Shown one piece after another: positions 510 through 40,474 of a stretch of 40,474 nucleotides of DNA. Source of the DNA: a virus. The notes under the pieces are model-generated. The model saw nothing but the letters and a program-made list of their open reading frames with translations. It had not been told where the DNA came from and ran no database searches. The stretch spans positions 1 through 40,474 of IMG/VR virus record IMGVR_UViG_3300013767_000073, one strand, 5' to 3'. Position numbers and translations under genes: made by a program. The number at the start of each line of letters is the position of its first letter. Positions within the stretch are counted from its first letter, which is position 1.

Positions 510-511
510 GC

Positions 512-1227: not shown

Positions 1228-1349
1228 TGCGCATTCTGCACATGTGAGTGAGCTAGGGGTGGGGGTGCCCAAAAGTCTGGGGCGACCCGGCTCCGATCCG
1301 TGCACTCCGTCATTTTTTTGTGCGCGCAGGTAATGGAGGGGGGGGTGCT

Positions 1350-17955: not shown

Positions 17956-20538
17956 ATGGAAACCACGAAGGACTATCTCGCGGCACTTGACCGCATCTAC
18001 GCGACTGGCATCAAGTACAAGGCCATCACGGAAGGGCCGGTCAGTGGCCCCGAGAGTGTGGTTCAAACGGCCAGAGGGCCGGTCAAGACGCTGGCGCGGA
18101 TTGTGAGCGAGGTGCCCAGCGCCCAGGCGGATCGGGCGAGTGCGGAGGTTGCTGCCGCGGCCGCCGTGGCGCAGGCTGGCAACGCCTCCGAGAGTGCAGC
18201 CGCAGCACAGGCTGCGAGGGCCGCTGCCGAGCTGGCGCGCGATGCGTCGTTTGCGCAGGGGAAAAAGTACGTGGACGAGCCGACTGGTCGCGCCAGCGTG
18301 GCCGACGGGGAGGCCTTCCTGGTACAGGGGGCAGGGGATATCGCGGCCTTTGAATATCGCCGAGTCAGCGCTAGCGCTTCCACGCTGATCGCGCTCTACC
18401 CAAGCGCTGGCTCGGTTCAGCAACTTCGCACCGATCTTGAGACACGAGTGACCCAGCAAGAGATCATGGATCCCACCATCGTTGGTGCCGAAACGGACCC
18501 TGATGGAAATGCCGTCACTCTCACGCACACTGACGGGACGAAGGAGATTCCGAAGGCTAAGCTTGGCACGGCCACGGCGACGAAGTTCTATCCCATCTCC
18601 ATCGAGGACGATGCCACGGACACCTATTCTGGGTCGGCTATCGGTTACGAGCGTGTCTTCACGGATCCGGCTGGCTTCATGTCTCTGGGTTTCCGGTCGG
18701 ACGGTGCGGTGGAGATTCCCAAGCTGATTACCCCAGGGCTGGGCGCGGCGTGGAACACCTTCGGCTTGGGCGATGCTGATTCCGTTGCGTTCGTCGGCGA
18801 CAGCTACACCGCAAGCCATTACACGGTCAAGGACAAGGCCTACATTTCGCGCCTGTCATCGCTCACCGGCTACCGTTGCCGCAACTTCGGCATCTCGGGG
18901 AATGACGCGCTCGACATGAACTACCGCATCATCACCGATGCGGTGTACCCGGACGGTGCGTACTTTTCGGCAATGCGGGCGCGCTTCGTCTGCATCCTGA
19001 GCTACACGAACGATACGGACTTCCGTGGGGCGGATCTGACGATGTACCAGCGCAACATTGAGCGCCTTGTCGAAACGGTGATCGCCAGCGGCGCCGAGCC
19101 TATCCTGTGCAGCGAGTTCCCCGCCACGACCACGACCTACGCGATCCTGCGCAACATCGCGGACCGCTACGGCATCCGGTTTGTCGATGTGGCGTCGCTG
19201 AACTACGAGTGGGGGAACCTGCAGCTTGGCCCCTTTTTCCAAGGCCACCCGGGCACGCGCACGAATGCGGTCTTCTGGTACAACCTGTACGAGACGTTCC
19301 GCGCGCTGCCGAAGCCGGATCGCGGCATCAAGATCTACCGACGTCGCGCCGGCTTCGCGGTGTCGGCCATCTCCGACCTGCTGTTCTCGTCGGTGGTGGA
19401 CAAGCAAGCACGATTCAAGGAGCTGACGGTTTCGCACTACCGGCTCACGGATACTCAGCTGCCGCGATATGACGAGTTGAACAGTGGTATCAGTTGGTCT
19501 TTCACCCTGGAGTCCGACGAGTACTCCAAGATCGAAAGCGGTGCGGGAGTGGCGATCAGCGACTATGCGCTGGTGGAGGTCACGCTGCCGGGCACTGCGC
19601 GGACGATCGACCAGGTGATGCTGACGCTCGGTCTTCCGTCCGGCGTGCAGGTGTATGTGCGTGACTACCAAGACGTGGCGTCGTCGCCCGTTGGCAAGTC
19701 GCAAGGGGCATCCCCGACGCAGCCGGACTACCTGTCGAAGTGGAACAAATCGCGTGGCGCGTGGCGCTCGCTCGGCCAGTACTCGGCGCCCATCACCATG
19801 GCCAAGGTCAACCTGCGGAACTCCATGCGGGGCGACCGGATGGAGTTGCTGCTGTACAAGAGCAGCGGGTTCAGCATCACCGCGTGCCAGGTCGGATACC
19901 AGGGGGCAGGAGGGAAGGAGCCCAACCTGCGCACCACGCCGCCGCGTCTTCTCGACACGCAGCTCTTGCCCGCCCCCACCGTTTCTGCAGCCGATCTGAC
20001 CGCCGCGTGGACTGTGACCGGCGCGCCGGCAACGCTGGTGCCGATCGACAACGTCAACTCCCCGCGCAATCCGGCGAACACGGCGTCGCCGGTGTCGGCT
20101 GTCTGCGTGCTCACGGCGACCGATATGATCGGGCGCAGCCTGACGCTGGCTACGCCTGGTCTTGCCGGCAAGCGCTATGCCGTGACTGTGTATGCGCGGT
20201 ACTTCCCGAAGGCGTTCGTGGATCGCTCCAACCCGCTGTATTCCAGCCTGGACTCCGCCCAGGTGATCGATCGCATCGCCAATCCCTCTTCGGCGCCGAT
20301 CGATGCGGACTCGCACGACTTTCGCACGCTGCGCATGGAGTACGCCTTCGCGGCGAGCATCGATCCAACGGTGGGGGGCGGGGAGTTGGATGAGTTTGCC
20401 TCGCTCTATTGGCGACCGGTCGTCTTCTATGTGGACATGCCGCCGGCACCGCTCGGGACTGGAGCGTTCAGCTTCCGGCTGTCGTGCCCGGACGGTGAGA
20501 TTCAAGTGGCAAAGGTACTGATTCAGGAGGTCAAGTAA
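17956..20538 (+). CDS. Tail fibre / tailspike with SGNH (GDSL) hydrolase-like domain
   Basis: 860 aa. Ala-rich fibre-like N-terminus. Contains VAFVGDSYTASHY ... NFGISGNDALD (blocks I and II of SGNH esterases). Confidence 0.7.
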   Translation: METTKDYLAALDRIYATGIKYKAITEGPVSGPESVVQTARGPVKTLARIVSEVPSAQADRASAEVAAAAAVAQAGNASESAAAAQAARAAAELARDASFAQGKKYVDEPTGRASVADGEAFLVQGAGDIAAFEYRRVSASASTLIALYPSAGSVQQLRTDLETRVTQQEIMDPTIVGAETDPDGNAVTLTHTDGTKEIPKAKLGTATATKFYPISIEDDATDTYSGSAIGYERVFTDPAGFMSLGFRSDGAVEIPKLITPGLGAAWNTFGLGDADSVAFVGDSYTASHYTVKDKAYISRLSSLTGYRCRNFGISGNDALDMNYRIITDAVYPDGAYFSAMRARFVCILSYTNDTDFRGADLTMYQRNIERLVETVIASGAEPILCSEFPATTTTYAILRNIADRYGIRFVDVASLNYEWGNLQLGPFFQGHPGTRTNAVFWYNLYETFRALPKPDRGIKIYRRRAGFAVSAISDLLFSSVVDKQARFKELTVSHYRLTDTQLPRYDELNSGISWSFTLESDEYSKIESGAGVAISDYALVEVTLPGTARTIDQVMLTLGLPSGVQVYVRDYQDVASSPVGKSQGASPTQPDYLSKWNKSRGAWRSLGQYSAPITMAKVNLRNSMRGDRMELLLYKSSGFSITACQVGYQGAGGKEPNLRTTPPRLLDTQLLPAPTVSAADLTAAWTVTGAPATLVPIDNVNSPRNPANTASPVSAVCVLTATDMIGRSLTLATPGLAGKRYAVTVYARYFPKAFVDRSNPLYSSLDSAQVIDRIANPSSAPIDADSHDFRTLRMEYAFAASIDPTVGGGELDEFASLYWRPVVFYVDMPPAPLGTGAFSFRLSCPDGEIQVAKVLIQEVK

Positions 20539-23780: not shown

Positions 23781-23838
23781 CATAACATAACATTCATAAC
23801 ATAACGAAACGTAACGTTACGGAGAGAAAATGTTATGG
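23781..23838. promoter_or_regulatory. Repeat-rich kfrA promoter/operator region
   Basis: cataacataac at 23781-91 and 23795-805. 12-bp palindrome cgtaacgttacg at 23810-21. Inverted atgttatg overlaps the kfrA start. Confidence 0.5.
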
Positions 23839-24872
23839 CACGCGAAGCCAGCATCACGCAGGAACAGGTCAACGCCGCCGCCGACGCGCTGCGGGCGTCT
23901 GGCGCCAAGCCCACGGTGCGCGCGGTGCGCGAGCGCCTGGGCAACACGGGCTCGAATGCCACGGTCATGCGCCTGCTCGCGGTCTGGCAGGGCGGCCAAG
24001 TAAAACCCGCTGAGACGCCGATCACGCTGCCGGCGACACTGCAGCGCGCGCTGGTCGACTACGTGGGCCAGGCCGTGGCTGAAGGCAAGGCGGAACTGGC
24101 GGCGGATCTCGCTGAACTGCAGCAGGTCAACGCGGATCTGGCCAGCGAGAGCGAGCGCCAGGCAGCGGCGATCGAGTCCCTGGAGAGCGAGCGCGATGCG
24201 GTGCAGTCGGAGCGCGATGCGCTCGCCGGCCGCGTGCAGCAGCTCGAGGCCGACCAGGTCGTGCTGCGCGGCGAGGTCGAGCAGGAGCGGGCTGCGGCCG
24301 AGGGCGCGCGCACGGCCCTGGCCAAGGCCGAGCTGCGCCTGGAGGCGATGCCGCGGCTGGTCGAGGATCTCGCAGCCGTGCGGGTCGAGGTCGAGCGGGA
24401 GCGGTCGGGTCGGATTGCCGCCGAGCAGGCTGCCGCGGTGGCGAGCGCGCGCCTCGAGGCGGAGGCGGTCGCCCTGATGCGGGCCGAGAAGGCGCTGGAG
24501 GCCGTGCCGCAGCTGGAGGCGGCACTGTCGGCGGTGCGGGCCGAGCTGGAGGCCGAGCGCGCGAGCCGGGCCGCCGCCGAGCAAGCGGTCGCCGTCGCGC
24601 AGGCTGCGGTCGTGCACGTCGAGGGCGAGCTGGCCACGGTGCGCGCCGCCGGCGAGAAGGCGGAGGCCAAGGCGGAAAAGCTCCGCGGCGAACTCCAGGC
24701 CAAGGTCTATGAGCTGAGCGAGGCCGTGCACACGCAGCAGGCCGCCACCTACGAGGCCAACGCGAAGTGGTCGGCGGCGGAGTACCAGCTGCGGCACGCG
24801 CAGGAAGCGCTGGCGGCGGCCGAGCGGGCCGCGCCGGCGGAGAAGCCCGCCACGCCGGCTAAAAAGCGCTAG
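23835..24872 (+). CDS. kfrA: KfrA-like plasmid DNA-binding coiled-coil protein
   Basis: The N-terminus ITQEQVNAAADALRASGAKPTVRAVRERLGNTGSNATVMRLLAVW matches the KfrA_N domain. The remainder is a long Ala/Glu/Leu coiled coil. Confidence 0.75.
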   Translation: MAREASITQEQVNAAADALRASGAKPTVRAVRERLGNTGSNATVMRLLAVWQGGQVKPAETPITLPATLQRALVDYVGQAVAEGKAELAADLAELQQVNADLASESERQAAAIESLESERDAVQSERDALAGRVQQLEADQVVLRGEVEQERAAAEGARTALAKAELRLEAMPRLVEDLAAVRVEVERERSGRIAAEQAAAVASARLEAEAVALMRAEKALEAVPQLEAALSAVRAELEAERASRAAAEQAVAVAQAAVVHVEGELATVRAAGEKAEAKAEKLRGELQAKVYELSEAVHTQQAATYEANAKWSAAEYQLRHAQEALAAAERAAPAEKPATPAKKR

Positions 24873-24889
24873 GCTGGGAGGACGGCCCC

Positions 24890-25120
24890 ATGATCAGGAT
24901 CTCGACGTGTCCCACGCCCTGCGACTGTCTGAACGATTGCGGCGACGATCCGCGCCTGGGCGCGTGTCAGGTCACCAAGTGCGCCGCCGCGATTGCTCGG
25001 GAGGCGGGCCGGCGGGCCGCCGCCTGGCAGCGCTGCGAGGCGTGGCTGGCGACGCTGCCGGCGGAGGTGGACCGCGCCAGTGCCCGCCTGGGCTGGCACG
25101 CAGCGCTGCGTCGCCGGTGA
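24890..25120 (+). CDS. Hypothetical Cys-rich small protein
   Basis: 76 aa ORF, 18 nt after kfrA. CPTPCDCLNDCGDD...C..TKC. Confidence 0.4.
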   Translation: MIRISTCPTPCDCLNDCGDDPRLGACQVTKCAAAIAREAGRRAAAWQRCEAWLATLPAEVDRASARLGWHAALRRR

Positions 25121-25259
25121 TGGTTATGCCGTTTTGACATAACGATTATTATGCGCGTATATGGCGTATTGATCACATTACTGATGTGATCCGATGCCAA
25201 GTTCATCGTCGAGGCGATGGGCTTCCTGTTGGCGGTCCTGCCAGAGCTGATCAAGTTTG

Positions 25260-25997
25260 TCAAATTGGCAGTCGCTGCTGAGGGTCCTTTGCGAAGCGGA
25301 ATTCGAGGCCTACCACCTTGCGCCCTGCTCGCCTGGTATCCCACTCGATCAAAAGTCCGTTCTTCTCTTTCAGGTCGCGCAGCGCTGGCTCGATCACGCG
25401 CGTCCGCAGTTCCTTGAAGTTCTTTACATAGGCCTCTGGCACTTCCATGCTGTGCGTGAATTCCTCAATCGTCGGGCTATACCGCCCTGCTGCTTCCCAC
25501 GACTTTAGGCACTCGAACAGTCTCCAGGTGTAGACCGAACGGAAGTCGGCTGCCTGGCGCAACTTGTAGGAAAGAAACTCCCGGCGCAAGCCAAACAAGT
25601 GCGGCGCCACCGAGCTGGTCCACACTAGTTCGATCCAGCCCTCCCCTTTGTGGTACTTCCGATATTCGACCCACCGATACTTTGTGTCTTCCGGACCCTT
25701 CGGTGTCATTTCCACGGTGCGGATGTAGCGGTCAAAGATCCGTTCGGCTGCGGCTTCCATCTGCTCGTAAGCGCTGGTCATGTCCAGGCCAAAGGTCTCC
25801 GCATAGTCCTTGGCATGTAGGCGTGTACGCAGCGCTGACTTTGACAGCACCAAAGGCACTGAATCGCCCTGGGCTATGCAGCAAGAGATGACGCGCTTCT
25901 CCGGTAGCGACAGGCCGTGGGCTGCCCGAACAAGGGCGTTGCTCATGTTGACGTTCAGCTCGGCAATCGGCTGACCGGGTTTCGGTGGTTTCGACAT
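25260..25997 (-). CDS. repA: Iteron-type plasmid replication initiator (Rep_3 family)
   Basis: NMSNALVRAAHGLSLPEKRVISCCIA ... FLSYKLRQAADFRSVYTWRLFECLKSW ... GRKVVGLEFRF is typical of Rep_3 winged-helix initiators. Iterons lie upstream. Confidence 0.85.
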   Translation of the reverse strand: MSKPPKPGQPIAELNVNMSNALVRAAHGLSLPEKRVISCCIAQGDSVPLVLSKSALRTRLHAKDYAETFGLDMTSAYEQMEAAAERIFDRYIRTVEMTPKGPEDTKYRWVEYRKYHKGEGWIELVWTSSVAPHLFGLRREFLSYKLRQAADFRSVYTWRLFECLKSWEAAGRYSPTIEEFTHSMEVPEAYVKNFKELRTRVIEPALRDLKEKNGLLIEWDTRRAGRKVVGLEFRFAKDPQQRLPI

Positions 25998-26003
25998 ATG
26001 TCG

Positions 26004-26022
26004 TATTGGGGCAAGGACCGGG
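26004..26022. promoter_or_regulatory. Inverted iteron copy abutting the repA start (autorepression operator)
   Basis: tattggggcaaggaccggg is the exact reverse complement of iterons 3 and 4. A partial second copy, tattggggc, lies at 26024-32. Confidence 0.65.
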
Positions 26023-26133
26023 TTATTGGGGCGTCGTCGGATGGTATGCCATAAATGGCGTCATCCAAAGTAGCGAGTAGTTCATTCTGTTGCAGCCTTC
26101 TGTGGACAACTAAGCAATGTGCCGACTGGCCGA

Positions 26134-26216
26134 CCCGGTCTTTGCCCCATTAGCCCGGTCTTTGCCCCATTGGAACCCGGTCCTTGCCCCAATAGAGCCC
26201 GGTCCTTGCCCCAATA
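26134..26216. repeat. oriV iterons: four direct repeats spaced 20-22 bp
   Basis: cccggtctttgccccatt at 26134 and 26154. cccggtccttgccccaata at 26176 and 26198. Confidence 0.85.
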
Positions 26217-26256
26217 GAAGCCCGCAAAGCCTTATCTGGCGCGGCTTTTCGGTGGG

Positions 26257-26297
26257 CTAAAACGAAGTAAAACGGGGTTAAAACGTATATAAAAACC
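26257..26297. other. AT-rich candidate DNA-unwinding element of oriV
   Basis: taaaacg at 26258, 26268 and 26279 (10-11 bp phasing), then tatataaaaa. Confidence 0.55.
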
Positions 26298-26304
26298 GGG
26301 GGGA

Positions 26305-26313
26305 TGTGGATAA
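26305..26313 (-). promoter_or_regulatory. DnaA box (perfect TTATCCACA on the minus strand)
   Basis: tgtggataa at 26305-13. Weaker matches: tgtggacaa at 26101-09 and tgtggacag at 26361-69. Confidence 0.65.
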
Positions 26314-26486
26314 CCCGCCTGTGGTCCGCAAGGCAGTGGACATCCCGCTGTGCGGGACCGTGTGGACAGCAGCGGACAGCCTGAACGGCTGCCCTCTTCC
26401 TGACCACACTTGCCCACAGCAGCTGTTGGTATGCAAGCGACCGGCACGACTAAGATTAGAAAAAGATCAAGGGACCAAGCCCTACC

Positions 26487-27521
26487 TTAGGTCGGCTCGT
26501 CCAGCTCGAGCTGGTGCTTCATGCTGGCTACGTAGGCCTCACGCTTGGCGGCGTCGTCAAAGGTCATGTCAAGGGTCACGCGGCCGTTGTCCCATTCCTT
26601 GAGCGTGCCCACCGCCTGGCCATCGCGCATGATCTTGTACTGGCGGGACGTGTTGCGCCGGGCCTTGGCGCCCTCCTCCGCTTTCTTGCGGATGGCTTCC
26701 ACCTTCTTGAAGGAAAGCTCCTCCTCAACAATTCGCTTGGCCAATTCTGTGGTTCTCGCCTCACCGGCCGCCTTGTTAAGCAGTGTCAGCTCATAGCCGA
26801 TGTTGTAGCCGAACGCTTCGGGCGTTTCGATGATGACGTCTAGCACTGACTGTGGCAGACCGGTGAGCGCCAGCATCTTGTTGATCTTGGACTTGCTCTC
26901 TCCGACGATTGGGATGAGGTCCTCTTCGGTGCGGGCAATGCCGGCATCGAGGAGTTGGCGATAGGAGAAGGCAACGTCGAGGAACGTCTCTTGCTCGCGC
27001 TCGTTGTTGAGCGTATGCGCGAGTCGGTAGAAGTCGATGGGCGATAGTCCGTCCAGCACCCAGCAGGACATCTCCGGGCGTCCAAGGTGCAACGTGGCCC
27101 GCTTCCGATAGTGTCCGTCGATCAGTTGGTAGCGCCCAGGCTGCTTGGGGTGCGGTGCGACGAAGGCTGGCACCAGTTGCCCATCGGCTTTGATCGAGTT
27201 GGCACGAGCCTTGATCTTTTCCTCGTTATAGAACTTGCGGCTATTGAGCGGGTTGTCATCAATCAGGTCGATCTGGATGGAGGCCTGGCGGCGCGTGGCC
27301 TTCCCTTCCTTCACCAATGTTTCTACGTAGAAACCAGCCTCCCCTTCCCGTTCTTGGCTCGATTCCGGGTCGGATTGATGCGGCTGCAGGAGGCTATCGC
27401 GGCCGTCCATGGCAGTGGCCACATTGTCGAACCGACTCAGGGTAGCGCTGCGCATCTGTTGGTCCCGTGCCTCGCCGTCCTGGAGGGCGCTAAGGAAATT
27501 TTTCTTGGCCTTAGTCGCCAT
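26487..27521 (-). CDS. parB: ParB-family partition protein
   Basis: IDLIDDNPLNSRKFY ... IKADGQLVPAFVAPHPKQPGRYQLIDGHYRKRA is the ParB N-terminal domain. Lies directly downstream of parA. Confidence 0.85.
   Translation of the reverse strand: MATKAKKNFLSALQDGEARDQQMRSATLSRFDNVATAMDGRDSLLQPHQSDPESSQEREGEAGFYVETLVKEGKATRRQASIQIDLIDDNPLNSRKFYNEEKIKARANSIKADGQLVPAFVAPHPKQPGRYQLIDGHYRKRATLHLGRPEMSCWVLDGLSPIDFYRLAHTLNNEREQETFLDVAFSYRQLLDAGIARTEEDLIPIVGESKSKINKMLALTGLPQSVLDVIIETPEAFGYNIGYELTLLNKAAGEARTTELAKRIVEEELSFKKVEAIRKKAEEGAKARRNTSRQYKIMRDGQAVGTLKEWDNGRVTLDMTFDDAAKREAYVASMKHQLELDEPT
27319..27334. promoter_or_regulatory. parS-like palindrome inside parB
   Basis: gtttctacgtagaaac, a perfect 16-bp palindrome. 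Confidence 0.55.
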
Positions 27522-27523
27522 GT

Positions 27524-28180
27524 TTAGGCTCCAATGATTTCAAGGACTTCATCGACAAGGGCGTTCACTTCCTTCTTTGCCTCGCGAGCGCTTGAACTCA
27601 TGGCCACGACAGGCATGCCGGTTGCCTCGGCCTCCGGATAAGCAGCGCGATCCCCCAGGCTGCTAGCGCACAGCGGGAACTCCTCGTCTTGCCCAAGGGC
27701 TTCAAAGACGTTCTTGCTGATCGTTCGATTCTTCGTTTGGTTCGCGATGGTTCTTACCTGTAGGGTCGCGTTCTGTACCTGTGCTCGCCTGGCCAGATTC
27801 TTCGCTTCCTTCACGGCCCAGAAGTTGCCGGCTGACCCGACTACGGGGATCAGGCCTAGGTCGGAGACCAGCAGCGCGACGGATGGCGCGGCAGACTGGA
27901 TTGCTGGAGGGCAGTCGATAACGATGAAGTCGTAGTCGTCAACGAACTTCCGGATCTCCCTGTCAGGGTGAGGATGAACAGCGAGTGGGAAGACGGTCGC
28001 GGGGAATGGGTTGCTTTCTGTGGCTGCCCCTACTGAGAGGGCGGCAGTTCCCTGCCCGTCGAGATCGACCAGGGCAACTTTGTGGCCACGGTGTCCAAGT
28101 GCCCCTGCGAGGCACAAAGACACAGTGGTCTTTCCTGCGCCGCCCTTCTGATTGAAAACGGTAACGATCTTTGCAGTCAT
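27524..28180 (-). CDS. parA: ParA partition ATPase
   Basis: IVTVFNQKGGAGKTTVSLCLAGAL is the deviant Walker A. Also VALVDLDGQG and IVIDCPP. Confidence 0.9.
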   Translation of the reverse strand: MTAKIVTVFNQKGGAGKTTVSLCLAGALGHRGHKVALVDLDGQGTAALSVGAATESNPFPATVFPLAVHPHPDREIRKFVDDYDFIVIDCPPAIQSAAPSVALLVSDLGLIPVVGSAGNFWAVKEAKNLARRAQVQNATLQVRTIANQTKNRTISKNVFEALGQDEEFPLCASSLGDRAAYPEAEATGMPVVAMSSSAREAKKEVNALVDEVLEIIGA

Positions 28181-28204
28181 GTTGTTGATGCTCCCGTTGG
28201 CCGA

Positions 28205-28222
28205 GGTTTCTACGTAGAAACC
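28205..28222. promoter_or_regulatory. parS-like / operator palindrome in the parA leader
   Basis: ggtttctacgtagaaacc, a perfect 18-bp palindrome 25 nt upstream of the parA ATG. Confidence 0.6.
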
Positions 28223-28265
28223 TACGCGGCATGCGGCGAATGATATAGAGGAAAAATAAAAATAA

Positions 28266-28293
28266 GAAGAAATAAAAACGGGCCGAAGCCCGT
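28266..28293 (-). terminator. Rho-independent terminator ending the DGR transcription unit
   Basis: Minus strand: acgggc-ttcg-gcccgt followed by tttttatttcttc. Confidence 0.7.
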
Positions 28294-28299
28294 CCTGTT

Positions 28300-28315
28300 G
28301 TTTCTACGTAGAAAC
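28300..28315. promoter_or_regulatory. Third copy of the parS-like palindrome
   Basis: gtttctacgtagaaac at 28300-15. Confidence 0.55.
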
Positions 28316-28321
28316 TTCGCG

Positions 28322-28585
28322 TCAGCCAGACGCCAGCCTAGTGCGCCAGCTGCTGTATGGGAGGCCGATGGCGATGTGATAGCGGTGGCGCGCTTCGGCA
28401 CTGCTATCCAGTTCGCTGCGGGATTTGATCTTGCAGGCGGAGCGGAGCACGGAAGCGGCACGCTCCGCATCCTCTAGATCGGAAAAGTCCTTCCAATCGA
28501 TGGGGAAGCGCTCGGCGAGGAAGTGGCGAAAGTCGGCGTTGCTGCAAAGGATTCCGGCGGTGCGGGCGAGGGCGTGGCTGCTCAT
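28322..28585 (-). CDS. Hypothetical 87-aa protein co-transcribed downstream of the RT
   Basis: Starts 12 nt after the RT stop and ends just before the terminator. No recognised family. Confidence 0.6.
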   Translation of the reverse strand: MSSHALARTAGILCSNADFRHFLAERFPIDWKDFSDLEDAERAASVLRSACKIKSRSELDSSAEARHRYHIAIGLPYSSWRTRLASG

Positions 28586-28596
28586 GGCTATATGTC

Positions 28597-29841
28597 CTAG
28601 AAGAGCACCATCTGGCGCGGGGTGATGGCAGGAGCGGGCTCGGTATTGGCGGCTTTGGGTATAGGCTCGGTGGCCAGTCGCCGGTATATCTTGGTGAGGC
28701 TCGAGTCCACGGTGTGGCCGCGGCGGCGAGCAATGTTGGCGAGCTGCGCCTGGTCATGGTGGCTTCCTGTGGCTTGGCGCAGTAGCCCGAGGTAGCTGTT
28801 GGCGCTGGTGAAGACCTCGGCAGCCGGCATTCGCTCGAGGCGGTGTGCTGCCGCCTGGACTGTTCGCCGGCGCGTGGTGCGCACCCATGGTCTGATTACT
28901 TGGCCAACGAAGTCGACGCCGCGCGCAACCGGCTGCAGGATGGTCTTGGCCGGATTCAACTGTGCACCGAGCCGTCGTGGTAGGAATGCCGTGATGTCTT
29001 TCAGTGCGGCGTTCAACCACTGGGGCGATTCATGTAGCAGCACGAAATCGTCGACGTAGCGGATGTAGTGCCGGCACCTGATTTTGTGCTTCACGTGCTG
29101 ATCCAGCGTGTCCAGGTGGACATTGGCAAAGAACTGGCTGCTCAGATTCCCGATCGGTAGGCCTCGATGAGCCGGCTGATTCAGAAGGCTCTTGTGCGCG
29201 GGCACACGCGCCATCAGCTCGCGTGGGCTGTGGAACTGGGCGCCGGGGCGAGGGTCGTGCATTAGCACTACGTCGACCAGCCACATCCACCAGGGCTCCG
29301 TCACGCGCGCGGCCAGCTGCTCGCGTAGGACGTTCTTGTCGATGCTGACGAAGAAGTTCGCCAGATCGCATTTCAGGTAGAAGGCTGGCCTTGCCCAATT
29401 CTGGGTGATGCTGCGGATCTTTGCCTCGAGGCGCTGGGCTGCGTACAGCGTGCCGCGGCCTGGGATGCATGCGCAGCTGTCGGCGACGAATGCAGCGTGG
29501 AAGCGTGACGCGATGCGGTTGTACAGCAGGTGATGGACCACCCGATCGCGGAAGTCGGCTGCCCAGACCTCGCGCACCTTAGGCCGGGTGACGACGAAGC
29601 AGATTGAGCGGCCCGGCCGATAGCAGCCGTCGACCAGATCACGGTGCAGCTGTGTCAGGTTGCGCTCGAGCCGCTGCTCGAAGCGAAGGGCGCTGTGTGT
29701 GCCGCGTTTGTGTCGACGGCAGTCGAAGTAAGCCGCGACGAGTTCCTCGAAAGAAAAGTCAGCATGGGCCGGTACGGCTTGATCTGCGGACGGCGCGCGC
29801 GCGGTACTCGTTACCCTTGTGGTTGTAGTTCTGATTGCCAT
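28597..29841 (-). CDS. DGR reverse transcriptase
   Basis: LPIGNLSSQFFANVHL (the DGR-specific [ILV]GxxxSQ motif) and RYVDDFVLL (YxDD). The only in-frame canonical start near the conserved N-terminus is the ATG at 29841, inside the TR. Confidence 0.9.
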   Translation of the reverse strand: MAIRTTTTRVTSTARAPSADQAVPAHADFSFEELVAAYFDCRRHKRGTHSALRFEQRLERNLTQLHRDLVDGCYRPGRSICFVVTRPKVREVWAADFRDRVVHHLLYNRIASRFHAAFVADSCACIPGRGTLYAAQRLEAKIRSITQNWARPAFYLKCDLANFFVSIDKNVLREQLAARVTEPWWMWLVDVVLMHDPRPGAQFHSPRELMARVPAHKSLLNQPAHRGLPIGNLSSQFFANVHLDTLDQHVKHKIRCRHYIRYVDDFVLLHESPQWLNAALKDITAFLPRRLGAQLNPAKTILQPVARGVDFVGQVIRPWVRTTRRRTVQAAAHRLERMPAAEVFTSANSYLGLLRQATGSHHDQAQLANIARRRGHTVDSSLTKIYRRLATEPIPKAANTEPAPAITPRQMVLF

Positions 29842-29890
29842 TGCCGAAGTTCTGGATCCAGGCGTTGTTGGAGTTCTCCGCGTGCTGCGT
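29781..29890 (-). repeat. DGR template repeat (TR)
   Basis: Aligns to both VRs. On the coding strand it reads ...AEN SNN AWI QNF GNG NQN YNH KGN EYR ARA VRR, with 9 Asn codons (7 AAC, 2 AAT). GC-only stretch at the 3' end. Confidence 0.9.
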
Positions 29891-30061
29891 CGAGTCGTGC
29901 TATCCACGTCGCCTCGCCGAAGGCTTGCGCCGATCGGCGGGGAAACTGCGCTGGACCAGACCCGGGCGAACCCGGCGGTATCCTCATTGCGCCTGTCGGT
30001 GGCCACGCATGGCCAGCGGCACGACCAGATAAAGATCGCACGGGCCTGATCGCCTTGACGA

Positions 30062-30418
30062 TCAGGCAGCAGGCGACGATGCGGAGTGCTTGCGCCAACC
30101 ATGGCCTTGTTTGCTTACGCTGCTGGTGAGTTGGATTGCCTGGGCGTACTGCTTAGTCGAAATGAACTGCATATCGCGCGAGAGGCGGAGCAGCAGTTCG
30201 ACCACTTGCACGCGCTCGAGCAAATCGCTGATGTGCGGCACCTTGTCCCGCGCCACGTTGGCCCGGAAGATCAGCACGACGATGGCCAGGGCCTCGTCGC
30301 GGATCCGGCCGCCGAGCGATAGCTTGAAATCGCGCGGCATGTTGCGGGTCAGGGCCGTCACGTCACGAAACAGGTCGTACGCGACTTTGTAGATGGCCAG
30401 GTCAGTATGAAGCGCCAT
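30062..30418 (-). CDS. avd: Accessory variability determinant (Avd, four-helix-bundle protein)
   Basis: 118 aa. LAIYKVAYDLFRDVTALTRNMPRDFKLSLGGRIRDEAL is typical of the Avd / 23S-IVS four-helix-bundle family. Lies between the target gene and TR. Confidence 0.85.
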   Translation of the reverse strand: MALHTDLAIYKVAYDLFRDVTALTRNMPRDFKLSLGGRIRDEALAIVVLIFRANVARDKVPHISDLLERVQVVELLLRLSRDMQFISTKQYAQAIQLTSSVSKQGHGWRKHSASSPAA

Positions 30419-30434
30419 GCTGAAAAAAATCGTG

Positions 30435-30450
30435 GGCCGCTTACGCGGCC
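30435..30450 (-). promoter_or_regulatory. GC hairpin downstream of VR1 (DGR target-recognition hairpin / terminator)
   Basis: ggccgc-ttac-gcggcc. On the minus strand it is followed by cacgattttttt. Confidence 0.6.
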
Positions 30451-30471
30451 GAATTGAGAAGGACTAAATGA

Positions 30472-30963
30472 CTAAATGGGAGATCTGCGGACGGCGCGCG
30501 CGCGGGACTCGTGACCCTTGTGGCTGCAGACCTGAATGCCATTGCCGAAGTCCTGGACCCAGGCGCTGAGGGAGTACTCCGCGCGCTGCTCGTTGGACCA
30601 ATACCAGGTGCGCTCGAATTCTTCGGGAAGATTGGCGTAGAGCAGCGCCTGCTCTCGCCGAGTTGGCAGCTCGCCGCCGATCGATGCGGCCCAGTCCTTA
30701 GCTGCACTCCATTCCATCTTGCCGGGGTCGGCTGGAAGCAGGACCAGGTGGCAGTCAGGGGCGCCGTCCTTGCTCAGTAGGATGCCGGCATAGCGCTCAC
30801 CTTCGGCGAGGATAGGGCGAATCCCCTGGGCGATGTGGTTTTTGATCACGACGGGATGCTTTTCGATCAGGCTGGCCAGCCAGGCCTTCATGACCGATTG
30901 CGCGGGAATGGTGACCTTGGCCTCTCCGACTTGGAAGGTCACGTTCTCAGCAACTTGCGACAT
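30472..30963 (-). CDS. DGR target protein 1 (DUF1566 / C-type-lectin-fold-like)
   Basis: 163 aa. MEWSAAKDWAASIGGELPTRREQALLY ... YWSNEQRAEYSLSAWVQDFGNGIQVCSHKGHESRARAVRR. VR at the 3' end. Confidence 0.85.
   Translation of the reverse strand: MSQVAENVTFQVGEAKVTIPAQSVMKAWLASLIEKHPVVIKNHIAQGIRPILAEGERYAGILLSKDGAPDCHLVLLPADPGKMEWSAAKDWAASIGGELPTRREQALLYANLPEEFERTWYWSNEQRAEYSLSAWVQDFGNGIQVCSHKGHESRARAVRRSPI
30482..30589 (-). repeat. Variable repeat 1 (VR1)
   Basis: 108-bp alignment to TR 29781-29888 with 14 mismatches. Every mismatch is at a TR plus-strand T (an A on the coding strand). Confidence 0.9.
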
Positions 30964-30998
30964 AGGGTGTGCTCCTGAAATGGTGAAAAATCGCGCGG

Positions 30999-31016
30999 GG
31001 GCCGCTGACGCGGCCC
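30999..31016 (-). promoter_or_regulatory. GC hairpin downstream of VR2
   Basis: gggccgc-tgac-gcggccc. Same core as the VR1 hairpin. Confidence 0.6.
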
Positions 31017-31035
31017 TAATAGATAAAGGGGTGAA

Positions 31036-31692
31036 TTACTGAATCACCAGCATGCTGCGGACGGCGCGCGCGCGGTACTCGAGACCCTTGTGGTAGTAGT
31101 CCTGATCGCCACCGCCGAAGTCCTGGACCCAGGCGTCGTGGGAGTACTCCGCGTGCCGCGTGGAAGTCCAGTAGTAGCCCTCCGCGAAGGCCTCCGCGGC
31201 ACCGGTCTGGAAGATCTCGGCAGCCGTCTGGGCGGGGAAGTCCTCGGTGTATGGGTATCCGACCGGCACGCTGCTGGGGTTATCACCGTCGCGATAGCTT
31301 GCGTAGTTCCCCTCGGTGGGCTTCAGGTTGCGATAGACGAGCTCCTGCTCGTCGCGGGCCGGCAGGTACCAGTCGTGGAAGCCGTTAAGCTGCAGGCCGA
31401 GTGCCCACATGGCGATGTCGCTGCCTGCGCCGGCCATGGCCTTGGTGTTGGCGCGGCCGTCGAAATAGCTCATCGCACCGTCTACGCTTAGCATCGACGA
31501 GTTCCAGATTGTGGGCTCGTGCTCGCCACCGTCTTTCGGTGCGACGACCAGCACGTGGATGCCATCGTCCTTGCGGACCTGGCCGGCGTAGAAGCCGCCG
31601 CCGAGCGGCTGGCCGATCTGCAGCGCAGCGGCTGCGGCCTGGGTGATAGCGCTATGGATGACTTGCATTTCGACTGCGGTGATGGCGGTCAT
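31036..31692 (-). CDS. DGR target protein 2 (DUF1566 / C-type-lectin-fold-like)
   Basis: 218 aa. GGGFYAGQV...HVLVVAPKD ... DWYLPARDEQELVY ... YYWTSTRHAEYSHDAWVQDFGGGDQDYYHKGLEYRARAVR. VR at the 3' end. Confidence 0.85.
   Translation of the reverse strand: MTAITAVEMQVIHSAITQAAAAALQIGQPLGGGFYAGQVRKDDGIHVLVVAPKDGGEHEPTIWNSSMLSVDGAMSYFDGRANTKAMAGAGSDIAMWALGLQLNGFHDWYLPARDEQELVYRNLKPTEGNYASYRDGDNPSSVPVGYPYTEDFPAQTAAEIFQTGAAEAFAEGYYWTSTRHAEYSHDAWVQDFGGGDQDYYHKGLEYRARAVRSMLVIQ
31055..31161 (-). repeat. Variable repeat 2 (VR2)
   Basis: 107-bp alignment to TR 29784-29890 with 13 mismatches, all at TR plus-strand T. Confidence 0.9.
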
Positions 31693-33060: not shown

Positions 33061-33497
33061 GCTCGTTTCTCCAACGGGTGGGGCGCCGGCTTTGCGCCGT
33101 GTGCGGTCATGGCTGCAACGGCGATGTCGCGCGCGGCGGCGAGGGAGCGGACCGAGGCGGTATTGATCGCCTCGTGGATCTGCACGGAGACCGCGCGAAG
33201 CGATAGCTTCTCGAACTGATAGGCGACGACCTGGCCGCTTTGCTGCCAGCGCTCATAGATCGTGTCGAGCGTGCGCTGCGCTGATTGGAACTGCCGGTCG
33301 AAGTCGCTCACGCGCTGGAGAGCCATGGCCTGGCGGGCGATGGTGAGCATGCGGGCGACCCGGTTGAAGGACTTGGGTGAGGGGTCAAGAAACAGGTCGG
33401 CCAGGCTGTCGTAGAGCTCAAGCTGTAGGCTGGCTTTGTCCTGTGCGATGGTCGGGGTCGCGCCGCGGCGGATTTGGTGAAAGTGCCGTGTGCTCAT
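33057..33497 (-). CDS. Hypothetical protein
   Basis: 146 aa. 4-nt overlaps on both sides. Confidence 0.6.
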   Translation of the reverse strand: MSTRHFHQIRRGATPTIAQDKASLQLELYDSLADLFLDPSPKSFNRVARMLTIARQAMALQRVSDFDRQFQSAQRTLDTIYERWQQSGQVVAYQFEKLSLRAVSVQIHEAINTASVRSLAAARDIAVAAMTAHGAKPAPHPLEKRA

Positions 33498-34036
33498 GCC
33501 AGGGCCTCGCAGAATTCCTCCTCGCCCACGATGGCGTCGACCTCGTCGAACGCGTGGAACAGGTGCGCCGTGACGTGCAGCTCGCGGTCGAACTCTTGCA
33601 GCTTGATGCCTGGGTCCGGGCCAAAGTTAGGGGTGGCTGCATTGACCAGGTGGAGCAGGCGGCCGCCATGCTCGCGTACCAGAGTGGCCTCGGCCTCTGT
33701 GCACACATCGGGAATGATGACTGGGACGCATTGCGCAGCGGCTTCGCGCAGGGCGTCACGCGTCGGGTCTATCAGGGTGTCGGCGCCGACGGCAGCGCGG
33801 ATCCATGTCCAGCGCAGGGAATGCAGCAGCTGCGCTGGCGATTTCTTGAGCTGGGGGACCGGCGTGTGGAAAAGGTCTGTGCGGAAATGATCATCGGCGA
33901 GATGAAAGCCGGCCTGCAGCATGCGGCGCAGGGGCCTATCGAAGCTGACGATCGTGAAGCGGTGATCGCTGGAGGCGAGATAGTCGGCGATGGCGTCCTG
34001 CCCGGCGCCCGGGCGGCCGGTGATTCCGATCAACAT
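33494..34036 (-). CDS. dNMP-kinase-like protein with degenerate P-loop
   Basis: MLIGITGRPGAGQDAIADYL resembles phage deoxynucleotide monophosphate kinases (..GLTGR.GSGKDT..), but has Q and A in place of the Walker-A K and T. Confidence 0.5.
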   Translation of the reverse strand: MLIGITGRPGAGQDAIADYLASSDHRFTIVSFDRPLRRMLQAGFHLADDHFRTDLFHTPVPQLKKSPAQLLHSLRWTWIRAAVGADTLIDPTRDALREAAAQCVPVIIPDVCTEAEATLVREHGGRLLHLVNAATPNFGPDPGIKLQEFDRELHVTAHLFHAFDEVDAIVGEEEFCEALA

Positions 34037-34686: not shown

Positions 34687-35058
34687 ATGGACGACAACAA
34701 GACAATTCCCTGGGGCCGGATTGCGACGCATCTGCAGCGGGCTGGTCATACGCAGATGTGGCTGGCCGGCCAGCTAAATGTCGCGTCCAACGTGGTGACG
34801 AACTGGAAGCGACGGGGCGGCGCGCCGATGGGGCGGGCCCGCGAGTTGGCGGACGCCTTCGGTATCTCGGTAGGGCAGCTGCTCGAGCATCAAGAGGTGC
34901 GTGAGCGCATGAGTAAGGCTGGCCTGCGCCTGGTCGACCGGATCAGGGAGATGGATCAGCGCGGCCTGCTGACGAAGCAGGCCGAGGCAGCCGCGATGGC
35001 CTTTCTGGATCTCGTGGAGAGTGCCGGAGCTGTCGCGGCAGGAAGAGGGCGGAAATAG
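34687..35058 (+). CDS. XRE-family HTH transcriptional regulator
   Basis: TQMWLAGQLNVASNVVTNWKRRGGAPMGRARELADAFGISVGQLL is a Cro/CI-type HTH. Divergent from the leftward operon. Confidence 0.7.
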   Translation: MDDNKTIPWGRIATHLQRAGHTQMWLAGQLNVASNVVTNWKRRGGAPMGRARELADAFGISVGQLLEHQEVRERMSKAGLRLVDRIREMDQRGLLTKQAEAAAMAFLDLVESAGAVAAGRGRK

Positions 35059-35989: not shown

Positions 35990-35998
35990 TTGGGGCCT

Positions 35999-36322
35999 AT
36001 GAGCCTCCAAACCTATCTCGCCGATTCCGGCATCACGCAGGCAGCGTTCGCTGCCCAGCTCGGAGTGACCCAGTCAATGGTGGGGCAGTGGATGCGGGGC
36101 GTGGTCGTGCCGCCTCCAAGCCGTTGCGTGGAGATCGAGCTGCTCACCGATGGGCGAGTCAGCCGCATTGATCTTCGTCCAGCTGATTGGGCGCGCATCT
36201 GGCCAGAGCTCTATTGGCTTCGCGCTTGGCAAGAGTGGGGGCGCCAGCAACCGACGATGCGGGCCGCAGTGCGTGGCTTTGAGCGACATGGCGCGCGATG
36301 GCTCTTCGGTCGTGAGACGTGA
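35999..36322 (+). CDS. cro: Cro-like / YdaS-type HTH protein
   Basis: LQTYLADSGITQAAFAAQLGVTQSMVGQWMRG. Divergent from cI. Confidence 0.7.
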   Translation: MSLQTYLADSGITQAAFAAQLGVTQSMVGQWMRGVVVPPPSRCVEIELLTDGRVSRIDLRPADWARIWPELYWLRAWQEWGRQQPTMRAAVRGFERHGARWLFGRET

Positions 36323-36453: not shown

Positions 36454-36975
36454 GTGACTTACGAATATTCCGACATCGATCAGCACGAAGCGCTGTACAA
36501 CCTGGCGCGCCGCTATCCCGGCGGGATCGATGCGCTTGCGCATGCTATGGGTCGCCGACTCGATAAGCAGGTGTCGCCGAATGTTCTGCGGAACAAGCTG
36601 CGTCCCGGGATCGATACCCACTTCCTCAACGCTGAAGAGTTCTCTTTGGTTGTCGAGCTGTGCGAAGAAGCGGGCGTGCAGGGGGCGAAAGTTCCCGTCC
36701 AGGCGCTGTGCTGGCGCCATGGCCTGGTCGCGGTCGAGCCGCCGCCTCCGACGGTCACGATCAGGGATGTGATCGTGAAACTGGGCAGCGTATCGAAGGA
36801 GTTCGCTGAGCTGGTGACCGAGGTCACGGCCGACGCTGCCGATGGGGTGATCTGCATGGCCGAGCGGGAGCGAATCCACAAGGAGGCGTTGGGGCTTGTG
36901 CAGGCTGTAATGGCGCTGACCATGGCGGCTGATGCGGTAGCGGTCACGGCTGCGCGGCGGGACGGGGACCAATGA
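36454..36975 (+). CDS. CII-like phage regulatory protein (CP76-type)
   Basis: GIDALAHAMGRRLDKQVSPNVLRNKLRPG ... EEFSLVVELCEEAG. Position after cro. GTG start after gagggg. Confidence 0.5.
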   Translation: MTYEYSDIDQHEALYNLARRYPGGIDALAHAMGRRLDKQVSPNVLRNKLRPGIDTHFLNAEEFSLVVELCEEAGVQGAKVPVQALCWRHGLVAVEPPPPTVTIRDVIVKLGSVSKEFAELVTEVTADAADGVICMAERERIHKEALGLVQAVMALTMAADAVAVTAARRDGDQ

Positions 36976-37742: not shown

Positions 37743-37919
37743 ATGGATATTCCAATCCAATCGATCGAATCGCTCCGCAAGGCGGGGCGGGAGGCCGCTG
37801 AGGGCGGTGAGGCGCGGGACGCCAATCCGTTCCCGCGGTATGGCAGACACTACCGCCAATGGGAGCATGGCCATGTCTGGGCTGTGATCGCGATGGGTGA
37901 CAACGTGGAGGGCAACTGA
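37743..37919 (+). CDS. Small Rmf/CrpP-like protein
   Basis: In-frame ATG at 37743. AGREAAEGGEARDANPFPRYGRHYRQWEHG. Confidence 0.5.
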   Translation: MDIPIQSIESLRKAGREAAEGGEARDANPFPRYGRHYRQWEHGHVWAVIAMGDNVEGN

Positions 37920-39800: not shown

Positions 39801-39852
39801 ACCAGTACATTTCCGCTACGCTGTGCGCTCGGTGCGTGCAGTGAGAATGAAG

Positions 39853-39883
39853 CCCGGCCCGGTCCATCCGCGCCGGGTTTTTT
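39853..39883 (+). terminator. Rho-independent terminator downstream of the Q-like gene
   Basis: cccggc (39853-58) pairs with gccggg (39872-77), followed by tttttt. Confidence 0.6.
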
Positions 39884-39915
39884 CATTTCAGCGCAGTCTC
39901 GGCGAGGGGTGTGCG

Positions 39916-40371
39916 ATGGGTCTGATCGGCAGGTTTATCGGATGGTGGCGCGGGCGCGCCGCGAGCGCGGCAACTGTGAAAGGCGGTCGTGTCTCGCCTC
40001 AGATGCCGCCGCGGCGAATGCCGACGCGGAATGTTCCGCCGCGTCCGAATCCTCGATCGCCGGCGTTGGCGGCGTTCGCTGCAGCGCCTCGGCCGTCGCG
40101 TGTTGCGCGTGAGCTGGTGGAACGCGATCGGCGCGAGGCCTTGGCACGCGAGTGGCGCCAGCAGGTGGCGGCGCCGGCCTCGAGCGAGGGGATGTCGATG
40201 CTGCCGGCGGCGATGCTGCTCGCCGCGGAGAGCGGTGAGGGCGTCGCGGCTGACGAGGGGTCGTTCGGGTTGCGTGGTGTGTGTGGTGGTGGCTCGTTTG
40301 ATGGTGGCGGCGCATCGGGCAGCTGGGATGGTGGCGGGTCAAGCGGCGACTCGGCTTCGTCGTCGGACTGA
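39916..40371 (+). CDS. Hypothetical protein with Pro/Arg-rich centre and Gly/Ser-rich tail
   Basis: In-frame ATG at 39916 (MGLIGRFIGWW...) lies after the terminator. The C-terminus lies in the terminal repeat. Confidence 0.5.
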   Translation: MGLIGRFIGWWRGRAASAATVKGGRVSPQMPPRRMPTRNVPPRPNPRSPALAAFAAAPRPSRVARELVERDRREALAREWRQQVAAPASSEGMSMLPAAMLLAAESGEGVAADEGSFGLRGVCGGGSFDGGGASGSWDGGGSSGDSASSSD

Positions 40372-40474
40372 AGGTGTCTCCTTCCCTGCCTCGCGAGCGG
40401 TCGCTTGGCAGGGCTTCGTCGGGCCGGTGCATGGCGGTGCATCGGCCCGATTTTCTTTTTCTTCCTGGTCTGCA
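40348..40474. repeat. Terminal direct repeat, copy 2
   Basis: Exact copy of 1..127. Confidence 0.95.

Follow-up and report, generated by a model that had tools for sequence, protein, structure and literature searches.

The viral contig IMGVR_UViG_3300013767_000073 from the IMG/VR collection was analysed over its full length of 40,474 bp, hereafter the window, with regard to how the phage it encodes is maintained in its host. The window is a complete circular contig with an exact end overlap of 127 bp, leaving 40,347 unique bp, and its guanine-plus-cytosine (GC) content is 64%. It represents the entire genome of a temperate siphovirus of HK97/lambda-like type, and the host is probably Cupriavidus. 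An earlier note made from the letters of the sequence had listed a KfrA-like protein, a Rep_3 initiator with an iteron oriV, a ParA/ParB pair with candidate centromere palindromes and a CI/Cro immunity switch; all of these were found again at their positions. The features of the plasmid maintenance block are given below in order along the window (ORF, open reading frame; aa, amino acids).

23835-24872, plus strand: KfrA-like DNA-binding coiled-coil protein, 345 aa (Pfam KfrA_N, 6e-19; weak SMC coiled-coil matches)
24890-25120, plus strand: small Cys-rich ORF, 76 aa, also called as a gene on an identical Logan contig; no family match
25132-25159, minus strand: dif-like XerC/XerD site, TACGCGCATAA-TAATCG-TTATGTCAAAA, between the 76-aa ORF and the 3' end of rep
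25260-25997, minus strand: Rep_3-family initiator, 245 aa (Pfam Rep3_N, 1e-30, and Rep3_C, 7e-14; phrog_4402 'replication initiation protein', 9e-56)
26005-26021, minus strand: single inverted iteron, 8 bp 5' of the rep ATG, an exact match on the opposite strand
26101-26109, minus strand: DnaA-box-like sequence TTGTCCACA with one mismatch, which together with the exact box flanks the iteron array
26135-26215, plus strand: four tandem iterons, 17-mer CCGGTCYTTGCCCCAWT, spaced 20-22 bp, putative oriV core
26236-26300, no strand: A+T-rich stretch beside the iterons (48% GC against 64% in the genome)
26305-26313, minus strand: exact consensus DnaA box TTATCCACA, the sole exact match in the window
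26487-27521, minus strand: ParB, 344 aa, chromosomal/KorB-type, with ParB_N and helix-turn-helix (HTH) domains (Pfam; TIGR00180, 95 bits against a cut-off of 58.45 bits)
27319-27334, no strand: putative parS copy 3, within parB, where it encodes GFYVET; an equivalent intragenic copy is present in parB of pHA4-1
27524-28180, minus strand: ParA, 218 aa, small ParF-like Walker ATPase (Pfam AAA_31/CbiA; phrog_164, 2e-36; NF041546, 153 bits)
28206-28221, no strand: putative parS copy 1, 26 bp upstream of the parA start
28275-28296, minus strand: hairpin with T-run resembling an intrinsic terminator, between the last early-left gene and parA
28300-28315, no strand: putative parS copy 2, in the parA leader
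28322-28585, minus strand: conserved ORF of 87 aa, the final early-left gene in par-type relatives; no family match

Replication, partition and probable dimer resolution

The Rep protein consists of two winged-helix domains (WH1 and WH2), and both Pfam families were matched above their cut-offs. Its relatives in PDB are RepA of pPS10 (2e-20) and RepE of plasmid F (1e-10), the alignment with RepE spanning residues 17-236. At the amino acid level it is 58% identical to gp37 of the Burkholderia phage KS14 over 97% of the protein, with the same holding for close relatives of KS14, and 60% identical to the Rep of a Ralstonia insidiosa plasmid. The iteron has five matches in the window against 0.32 expected by chance, and all five lie upstream of rep. 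The inverted copy at the rep start, an arrangement shared with the R. insidiosa plasmid homologue, would be the rep operator, and the A+T-rich stretch at 26236-26300 is a candidate DNA-unwinding element. The replicons of KS14 and of the R. insidiosa plasmid share this layout of iterons of 20-22 bp in tandem plus an inverted one where rep starts. The first half of the KS14 iteron, TATTGGGGCAAAACCCCGG, is common with that of the window, TATTGGGGCAAGGACCGGG, with TATTGGGGCAA as the half-site; half-shared iterons together with 58% identity of the Reps are as expected of co-diverging initiator-iteron pairs.

Like the replicons of F (RepE), pPS10 (RepA) and R6K (pi), that of the window has a WH1+WH2 initiator, and its tandem iterons are accompanied by DnaA boxes, flanking A+T-rich DNA and an inverted repeat at the rep promoter. 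It differs from them in lying inside a phage genome, in the low identity of its Rep to proteins of solved structure (E values of 1e-10 to 2e-20) and in having four origin iterons only, with no separate incompatibility iteron cluster seen. No close copy of this Rep was found in a scan of IMG/VR proteins, while the best matches were a 49% identical Variovorax relative among GTDB genomes and a 51% identical relative on a 3-kb contig among metagenomes of the Joint Genome Institute (JGI). Outside the window this variant of rep was found on one Logan contig only. This is a 10.8-kb fragment in the Logan assembly of SRR8611926, on which all four proteins of the plasmid block, as well as the reverse transcriptase (RT) described further below, are identical to those of the window (tblastn).

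ParA carries the deviant Walker-A motif KGGAGKT (NQKGGAGKTT at residues 11-20) and has ParF of TP228 as its PDB relative, while the PDB relatives of ParB are ParB, Spo0J, Noc and KorB. The partition architecture is mixed, with an Ib-like ParA (218 aa, no HTH) and a large HTH-containing ParB (344 aa), and the same holds for its plasmid homologues. At the nucleotide level parAB is approximately 65-67% identical to the par loci of Ralstonia solanacearum pHA4-1, p71.9 and a Burkholderia multivorans plasmid, p2_2010Ycf503. The corresponding protein identities across the three plasmids are 56-69% for ParA and 53-64% for ParB, or 68-69% and 63-64%, respectively, for the R. solanacearum plasmids alone. 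The gene order of the par loci is also that of the window. These are, however, plasmids of 72-144 kb with other replication proteins and no phage genes in the regions examined, and at least one of them, B. multivorans p2, has conjugative-transfer genes beside par, unlike the window.

The 16-bp perfect palindrome GTTTCTACGTAGAAAC occurs in three exact copies in the window, where 0.02 would be expected, and no further copies were found there even when three mismatches were allowed. All three plasmids contain the same 16-mer unchanged, two to three times in the leader of parA, and pHA4-1 has it within parB as well. Such exact retention of a 16-mer, in DNA that has otherwise changed by a third, is what marks a protein-binding site, and we take GTTTCTACGTAGAAAC to be the centromere (parS) from this conservation. 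In the window the putative centromeres lie upstream of parA, and the copies in the parA leader probably act as operator as well, autoregulating the operon. A search of the literature on the parS sequence gave nothing relevant. A scan of IMG/VR for the exact palindrome returned mostly single matches at chance level. A separate observation from that scan was the 115-kb viral contig IMGVR_UViG_3300007775_000001 with at least 10 dispersed exact copies of GTTTCTACGTAGAAAC (loci L011, L012, L014, L018, L023, L024, L027, L028 and L031), perhaps a large element in which a related protein of ParB/KorB type serves regulation or partition.

Low-copy plasmids need resolution of dimers, and plasmid-borne sites of dif/cer type are a common device for this. 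The dif-like site beside rep has two 11-bp arms and a 6-bp centre. It was the sole match in the window to published dif arms, and none of 100 shuffled genomes gave a match. All 18 inner-arm positions agree with six published dif sites (PMC2731167), where even 16 of 18 would be expected only 0.005 times per shuffled genome. The closest published site was dif of chromosome 2 of C. necator H16 (Carnoy and Roten, Table S1) with 24 of 28 positions identical (arms 10/11 and 10/11, centre 4/6). The three central bases adjoining the XerC arm are among the identical ones, while the other published sites compared matched at 16-19 of 28. Weaker dif-like sites (17/18 and 16/18) occupy the same slot, with kfrA on one side and the 3' end of rep on the other, in two relatives described below, the C. 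oxalaticus X32 plasmid and L113, the Reps of which are unrelated to that of the window. The site is probably a dimer-resolution site for the XerCD recombinases of the host, and resolution by host Xer would explain a phage without a recombinase of its own. The earlier note, which had called the maintenance block full, did not list this site; it would supply dimer resolution, the one gap in that block.

KfrA has an N-terminal KfrA_N domain followed by an Ala/Glu-rich heptad-like tail. The gene is 72-75% identical in nucleotides to genes for 'DNA-binding protein' on Cupriavidus megaplasmids, and kfrA is found in the same slot in the relatives L113 and L117. The block is not uniform in composition: kfrA and the 76-aa ORF (23835-25120) have a GC content of 74%, the rep-oriV-parBA cassette (25121-28321) has 57% and the genome 64%. 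These sharp boundaries suggest that the cassette was imported separately from kfrA, and the composition fits a rep-par cassette that was recently exchanged as a module. On the other side of the cassette, the hairpin at 28275-28296, with putative parS copies on both sides, would insulate parA from the early-left operon. With a terminator and separate upstream regions, the cassette could be expressed independently.

Phage genes and search for integration functions

The 59 called ORFs were scanned with Pfam. All profile scans were run on concatenated pseudo-proteins, and the domain coordinates were mapped back to ORFs. For packaging and head, the matches comprised an HNH endonuclease, TerS, TerL, portal, a ClpP-type protease, HK97 capsid and connectors; for the tail, a lambda-type tail tube, the G/T chaperone, a tape measure of 962 aa, DUF1833, NlpC/P60 and gpJ. 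No sheath or baseplate family was matched among the called ORFs. Lysis genes include a GH19 endolysin and a holin, both recognised by Pfam, and spanin-like ORFs which were assigned by position only and have no family match. Neither frameshifts nor truncations were seen in the genes for packaging, head, tail and lysis. The lysogeny control genes are the following.

34687-35058, plus strand: HTH regulator of 123 aa beside cI (PHROG repressor/regulator matches; 58% identical in the X32 plasmid unnamed3)
35083-35892, minus strand: CI repressor with S24 (LexA-like) autocleavage domain (Peptidase_S24, 4e-16; 67% identical to CI of the C. oxalaticus X32 phage-plasmid)
35990-36322, plus strand: Cro-like HTH protein (YdaS, HTH_3 and P22_Cro matches in Pfam)
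36454-36975, plus strand: CII-like regulator (Phage_CP76, 2e-20; 70% identical in the X32 plasmid unnamed3)

CI, Cro and CII are all intact and stand in the usual divergent layout. The set of phage genes looked for in a phage-plasmid, i.e., packaging, head, tail, lysis and lysogeny control, is thereby complete.

Always located after cII is a gene for a 390-aa protein (37919-39091, plus strand), the homologues of which are 31-72% identical and all come from Cupriavidus prophages and phage-plasmids. Searches of this protein against Pfam, PHROGs with assigned function, NCBIfam and PDB sequences gave no match. Its AlphaFold model has a mean predicted local distance difference test (pLDDT) score of 65, rising to 80-90 in the N- and C-terminal domains; a confident N-terminal domain (residues 1-105) is joined by a disordered linker of about 150 residues to a helical C-terminal domain. 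Foldseek returned nothing below E = 0.9 for the model, the top weak matches being winged-helix proteins. The protein occupies the position where O and P would be in lambda, and this position makes it a candidate for a protein of lytic replication or of regulation.

Neither integrase, resolvase, large serine recombinase, DDE transposase, excisionase nor protelomerase was found with Pfam in the called ORFs. These families were likewise missing from 25 ORFs in alternative frames, each 130 aa or longer and in regions with no confident gene, which were scanned at E <= 1. They were also missing from the PHROG matches of 21 ORFs (those of the plasmid block and those that Pfam had left unassigned) and from the NCBIfam matches of 10 of those 21. 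A six-frame tblastn search with three Burkholderiales tyrosine integrases, which alone covered alternative frames inside verified structural genes, gave nothing below E = 0.1. There were no tRNA genes and no att-like repeats in the window. Called genes cover 93% of it, with the 489-bp oriV region as the largest gap, and at this coding density there is little or no room for a recombinase gene. Absence of a recombinase holds at profile sensitivity on the complete genome.

The contig stems from a JGI metagenome, its 390-aa protein being on record on a JGI contig of 40,474 bp. The ends form an exact terminal direct repeat, positions 1-127 being equal to 40348-40474, and an ORF at 39823-40371 crosses the repeat. 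The largest k-mer used in SPAdes-type assemblers is 127. The repeat is thus probably a k-mer overlap left by the assembler on a circular path and not a biological terminal repeat, and since the overlap equals that k-mer the contig is read as a closed circular assembly path.

Relatives and probable lifestyle of the element

The replicon is related to that of KS14 (Kisquattuordecimvirus), for which a plasmid prophage has been shown by experiment. KS14 prophage DNA was recovered by plasmid miniprep from lysogens, and the prophage was concluded to be a plasmid (Lynch et al., 2010; PMC3091744). Like the window, KS14 has a homologous Rep_3, 20-22-bp tandem iterons with the half-site TATTGGGGCAA, a ParA (29% aa identity to that of the window), a host among the Burkholderiaceae and no tyrosine integrase. 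In contrast, KS14 is a 32-kb P2-like myovirus, while the structural genes of the window are of HK97/lambda siphovirus type and not those of Peduoviridae. The part of KS14 with portal, terminase, scaffold and capsid has no match to the virion genes of the window, and only Rep and ParA match. KS14 also encodes a serine invertase of Gin/Cin type, which is missing from the window, and in its rep/par region no ParB of HTH type is annotated and no dif-like site was found. The classical phages P1 and N15 are, like the window, temperate tailed phages with plasmid replication and partition genes and no integrase. P1 differs by having its own Cre/lox for dimers and a separate lytic replicon, and N15 is linear with a protelomerase, while the window is circular and has no match to a protelomerase family.

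A syntenic relative was obtained by a DNA search of PLSDB. 'Plasmid unnamed3' of C. oxalaticus X32 (NZ_CP038638.1) is a circular replicon of 37,950 bp in a complete genome, and its gene order is that of the window: holin/endolysin, a kfrA remnant, repA, parB, parA, early-left genes and the 123-aa regulator, followed by S24 CI, Cro, CII, a homologue (353 aa) of the 390-aa protein, HNH and terminase. Identities to the proteins of the window are 67% for CI, 70% for CII, 58% for the 123-aa regulator, 84% for holin, 71% for endolysin and 40% for TerL. As in the window, there is a dif-like site downstream of rep and no integrase is annotated. There are also clear differences. The X32 plasmid encodes a tail of contractile, Mu-like type (sheath and baseplate present), its RepA shows no homology to the Rep of the window, its ParA and ParB are only 25-26% identical to those of the window and belong to a different size class, and its kfrA appears truncated.

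Three further elements have par genes in the same slot. L113 (IMG/VR, 38.8 kb) contains kfrA, parB, a large parA and an initiator of RepA_C type; L117 (IMG/VR, 36.4 kb) contains kfrA, parB and a large parA, while its rep was not identified; L124 (Logan, 42.4 kb) has parA and the end of parB, the locus ending within parB before kfrA and rep would be reached. The 87-aa ORF of the window is 50-58% identical at the aa level in the X32 plasmid, L113, L117 and L124 and adjoins parA in each. All five par-type elements are on contigs of 36-42 kb, and no par-type relative was found on a chromosome-sized contig. In L117 a gene of the Acyl_transf_3 family (L117:11455-12576), likely an O-antigen acetylase moron, stands between the lysis genes and kfrA, so that the lysogeny slot also accepts cargo. 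A gpJ relative, L127, had nothing informative 3' of the lysis genes. One candidate, a more distant structural relative, was rejected: the 41-kb 'plasmid' of Pusillimonas T7-7 (PLSDB; capsid 55% identical) is an integrase-bearing phage and not a par/rep element, with the tyrosine integrase in the position adjoining the lysis genes.

Integrative Cupriavidus prophages share with the window the early-right block around the 390-aa protein (49-72% identical); the prophage of C. necator N-1 also has the S24 CI and that of C. necator H850 also CII. Unlike the window, the prophages of N-1, H850 and C. numazuensis have an AlpA-type excisionase in the early-left operon and neither ParA nor Rep, and their terminases are of lambda Nu1/gpA type. 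They are located inside large contigs, of 3.9 Mb in C. necator N-1 (chromosome), 147 kb in C. necator H850 and 408 kb in C. numazuensis. Thus par/rep and xis appear as mutually exclusive alternatives on a single regulatory backbone, never both in one of the compared sequences.

As far as can be read from sequence, the element has what characterises a phage-plasmid, namely phage genes, an initiator with an origin, a partition system and the absence of an integrase, which is usual in the class though not obligatory. We consider it likely, with a probability of roughly 0.8, that it lysogenises as an autonomous circular plasmid. This was also the reading of the earlier note, which had proposed a temperate siphovirus carried as a circular low-copy plasmid prophage and lacking integrase, recombinase, transposase and protelomerase. 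That absence was borne out by the profile searches in Pfam, PHROGs and NCBIfam and by six-frame tblastn. That the phage is a temperate siphovirus is shown by its tail genes (tail tube of lambda type, G/T chaperone, tape measure, gpJ; neither sheath nor baseplate matched) and by the S24 CI, Cro and CII. The circular plasmid prophage gains strong, independent comparative support from the rep/oriV homologous to KS14, the putative parS shared with real plasmids and the free X32 relative, and further from the exclusivity of par/rep and AlpA on a shared backbone, the missing protelomerase and the closure of the contig on itself. As to low copy number, we infer it from iteron control and active partition only.

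Lysogeny would then proceed as follows, the replication steps being modelled on homology and architecture common with F RepE, pPS10 RepA and R6K pi, and partition on type I systems. CI would repress the divergent early operons, as the CI/Cro/CII layout suggests. From the plasmid cassette, flanked by the lysis genes on one side and the end of the early-left operon on the other, rep and parAB would be expressed from their own autoregulated leaders with presumed promoters. Rep_3 monomers on the four iterons and host DnaA at the flanking boxes would open the adjacent A+T-rich DNA, while the inverted iteron would mediate autorepression of rep and 'handcuffing' of iterons would keep the copy number low. 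ParB bound to GTTTCTACGTAGAAAC at its three positions and the small ATPase ParA, of ParF type, would segregate the plasmid copies, with KfrA as a putative accessory DNA-binding coiled-coil factor, and host XerCD would resolve dimers at the dif-like site beside rep. SOS-induced autocleavage of CI would lead to lytic growth and packaging by HNH and terminase. The rep-par cassette itself seems to be exchangeable: sisters have RepA_C and different ParAB, and distant cousins have an excisionase and are integrated in chromosomes.

Several points weigh against maintenance as a plasmid. A circular assembly is equally expected from the replicative or ligated form of a cos phage. The dif-like site is near enough to the host dif to allow occasional Xer-mediated co-integration. 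Rep_3 is the sole protein with a recognised replication function encoded in the genome, and it might serve lytic replication also, or solely. Finally, a scan of the block for the sigma-70 consensus, which is poorly suited to a betaproteobacterium of 64% GC, gave no promoter.

Under one rival explanation the element would not be a working phage-plasmid. It would be either a plasmid with a captured defective prophage or a phage in which Rep_3 and ParAB serve lytic or carrier-state replication only, stable lysogens not being formed. Rep_3 as the only recognised initiator would suit this, as would virion genes of merely predicted function. Those genes are, however, free of frameshifts and truncations from packaging through head and tail to lysis in a genome that is 93% coding, the CI/Cro/CII set is intact with a CI that is predicted to be SOS-cleavable, no function in lytic growth is known for active partition with conserved centromeres, and KS14 with its homologous replicon forms both stable plasmid lysogens and plaques. 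We regard such an explanation as decidedly unlikely. Still less credible, and in our view highly improbable, is a recombinase hidden in an ORF with no family, with rep and par as relics or serving transient episomal phases only. Approximately 15 ORFs have no family, including the 390-aa protein with its weakly winged-helix-like N-terminal domain. That protein is, however, shared with the AlpA-carrying cousins and sits at the usual position of replication genes, the remaining unassigned ORFs are all of 273 aa or less, att-like repeats and tRNA genes are missing from the window, and rep, par, iterons and parS are intact and evidently under purifying selection.

A dual lifestyle was also considered, in which the element is normally a plasmid and also integrates and excises at the host dif by means of XerCD, in the manner of integrative mobile elements exploiting Xer (IMEX); the rep/par cassette would then account for the lifestyle in part only. 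Such elements, e.g., CTX-phi and VGJ-phi, integrate at dif by host Xer. The closeness of the dif-like site to dif of H16 chromosome 2, down to the identical central bases on the XerC side and well above the other published sites, is in its favour, and so is the retention of a site in the same slot in two relatives with non-homologous Reps. On the other hand, sites of dif/cer type on plasmids commonly serve dimer resolution, an element with complete replication and partition functions has no need to integrate, the syntenic X32 relative is a free plasmid in a finished genome, and among the par-type relatives found none is on a chromosome-sized contig. We therefore hold this lifestyle to be unlikely, and it is with equally little confidence that we would propose a tailed-phage lineage that gave over all site-specific recombination, i.e., dimer resolution and reversible co-integration at dif, to host XerCD. 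To our knowledge no tailed-phage IMEX has been described; if true, this would be a Caudoviricetes IMEX with a switchable plasmid/integrated lifestyle.

With plasmid maintenance as the preferred reading, the element belongs to a kind already known, which is under-described in this bacterial group. KS14 and Cupriavidus elements have been placed in a loose, uncurated 'VP882 community' (Pfeifer et al., 2021; PMC7969092). Phage-plasmids are unevenly sampled, and outside enterobacteria they mostly fall in loose, uncurated groups. New are a siphovirus with this Rep_3/ParABS cassette, the swapping of cassettes on a Cupriavidus backbone and the conserved dif-like site. Temperate phages of Cupriavidus with one backbone exchange an excisionase, RepA_C with a large ParA, or Rep_3 with a small ParA as modules, and they offer a natural system for the study of how lifestyle and plasmid incompatibility change through cassette exchange. 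The reliance on host Xer for dimer resolution that the conserved dif-like site suggests bears on the stability of the element.

Accessory genes and the diversity-generating retroelement

The same element, likely a multi-copy episome, also carries a candidate anti-defence protein and a diversity-generating retroelement (DGR). The first is an Acb2/Tad1 hairpin-domain protein at 27-509 on the plus strand (Pfam, E = 1e-16), just 5' of the HNH and terminase genes. It is a candidate cyclic-nucleotide sponge against the cyclic-oligonucleotide-based anti-phage signalling system (CBASS) and Thoeris, and a homologue is present at the equivalent place in the C. numazuensis prophage. The HNH endonuclease is encoded at 305-895 (plus strand), directly upstream of TerS/TerL at 1320-3592 (plus strand); an HNH gene beside terminase is the arrangement used by HK97-like phages for cos cleavage. 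In different frames, the HNH ORF and the 3' part of the Acb2-like ORF overlap, and the true start of HNH is therefore probably later than 305. Other single genes were observed outside the block. At 17956-20538 on the plus strand an 860-aa protein in tail-fibre position has a GDSL lipase/acylhydrolase domain, and it may be a surface-polysaccharide deacetylase for host recognition. In the early-left operon, at 33494-34036 on the minus strand, there is a P-loop protein with a match to the PHROG 'deoxynucleoside monophosphate kinase' (4e-13).

The DGR is complete and occupies 28597-31692 on the minus strand. It consists of an RT, a template repeat (TR), variable repeats (VR), an RNA and accessory and target proteins:

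28597-29841, minus strand: RT (Pfam RVT_1)
approximately 29784-29893, minus strand: TR
29888-30078, minus strand: Rfam RT-15 RNA (180 bits)
30062-30418, minus strand: bAvd, a component of the DGR
30472-30963 and 31036-31692, minus strand: two small Lcl_C (C-type-lectin-fold) target proteins that carry the VRs
30485-30594 and 31055-31164, minus strand: two VRs, at the C-termini of the two Lcl_C proteins

Differences between TR and VR seen in the alignment, with no position-by-position tally, are mainly at adenines of the TR. The targets of the DGR are located in the early-left operon and not among the tail genes. At the nucleotide level the retroelement is about 67% identical to the DGRs of the Burkholderia phages Magia and vB_PL1.

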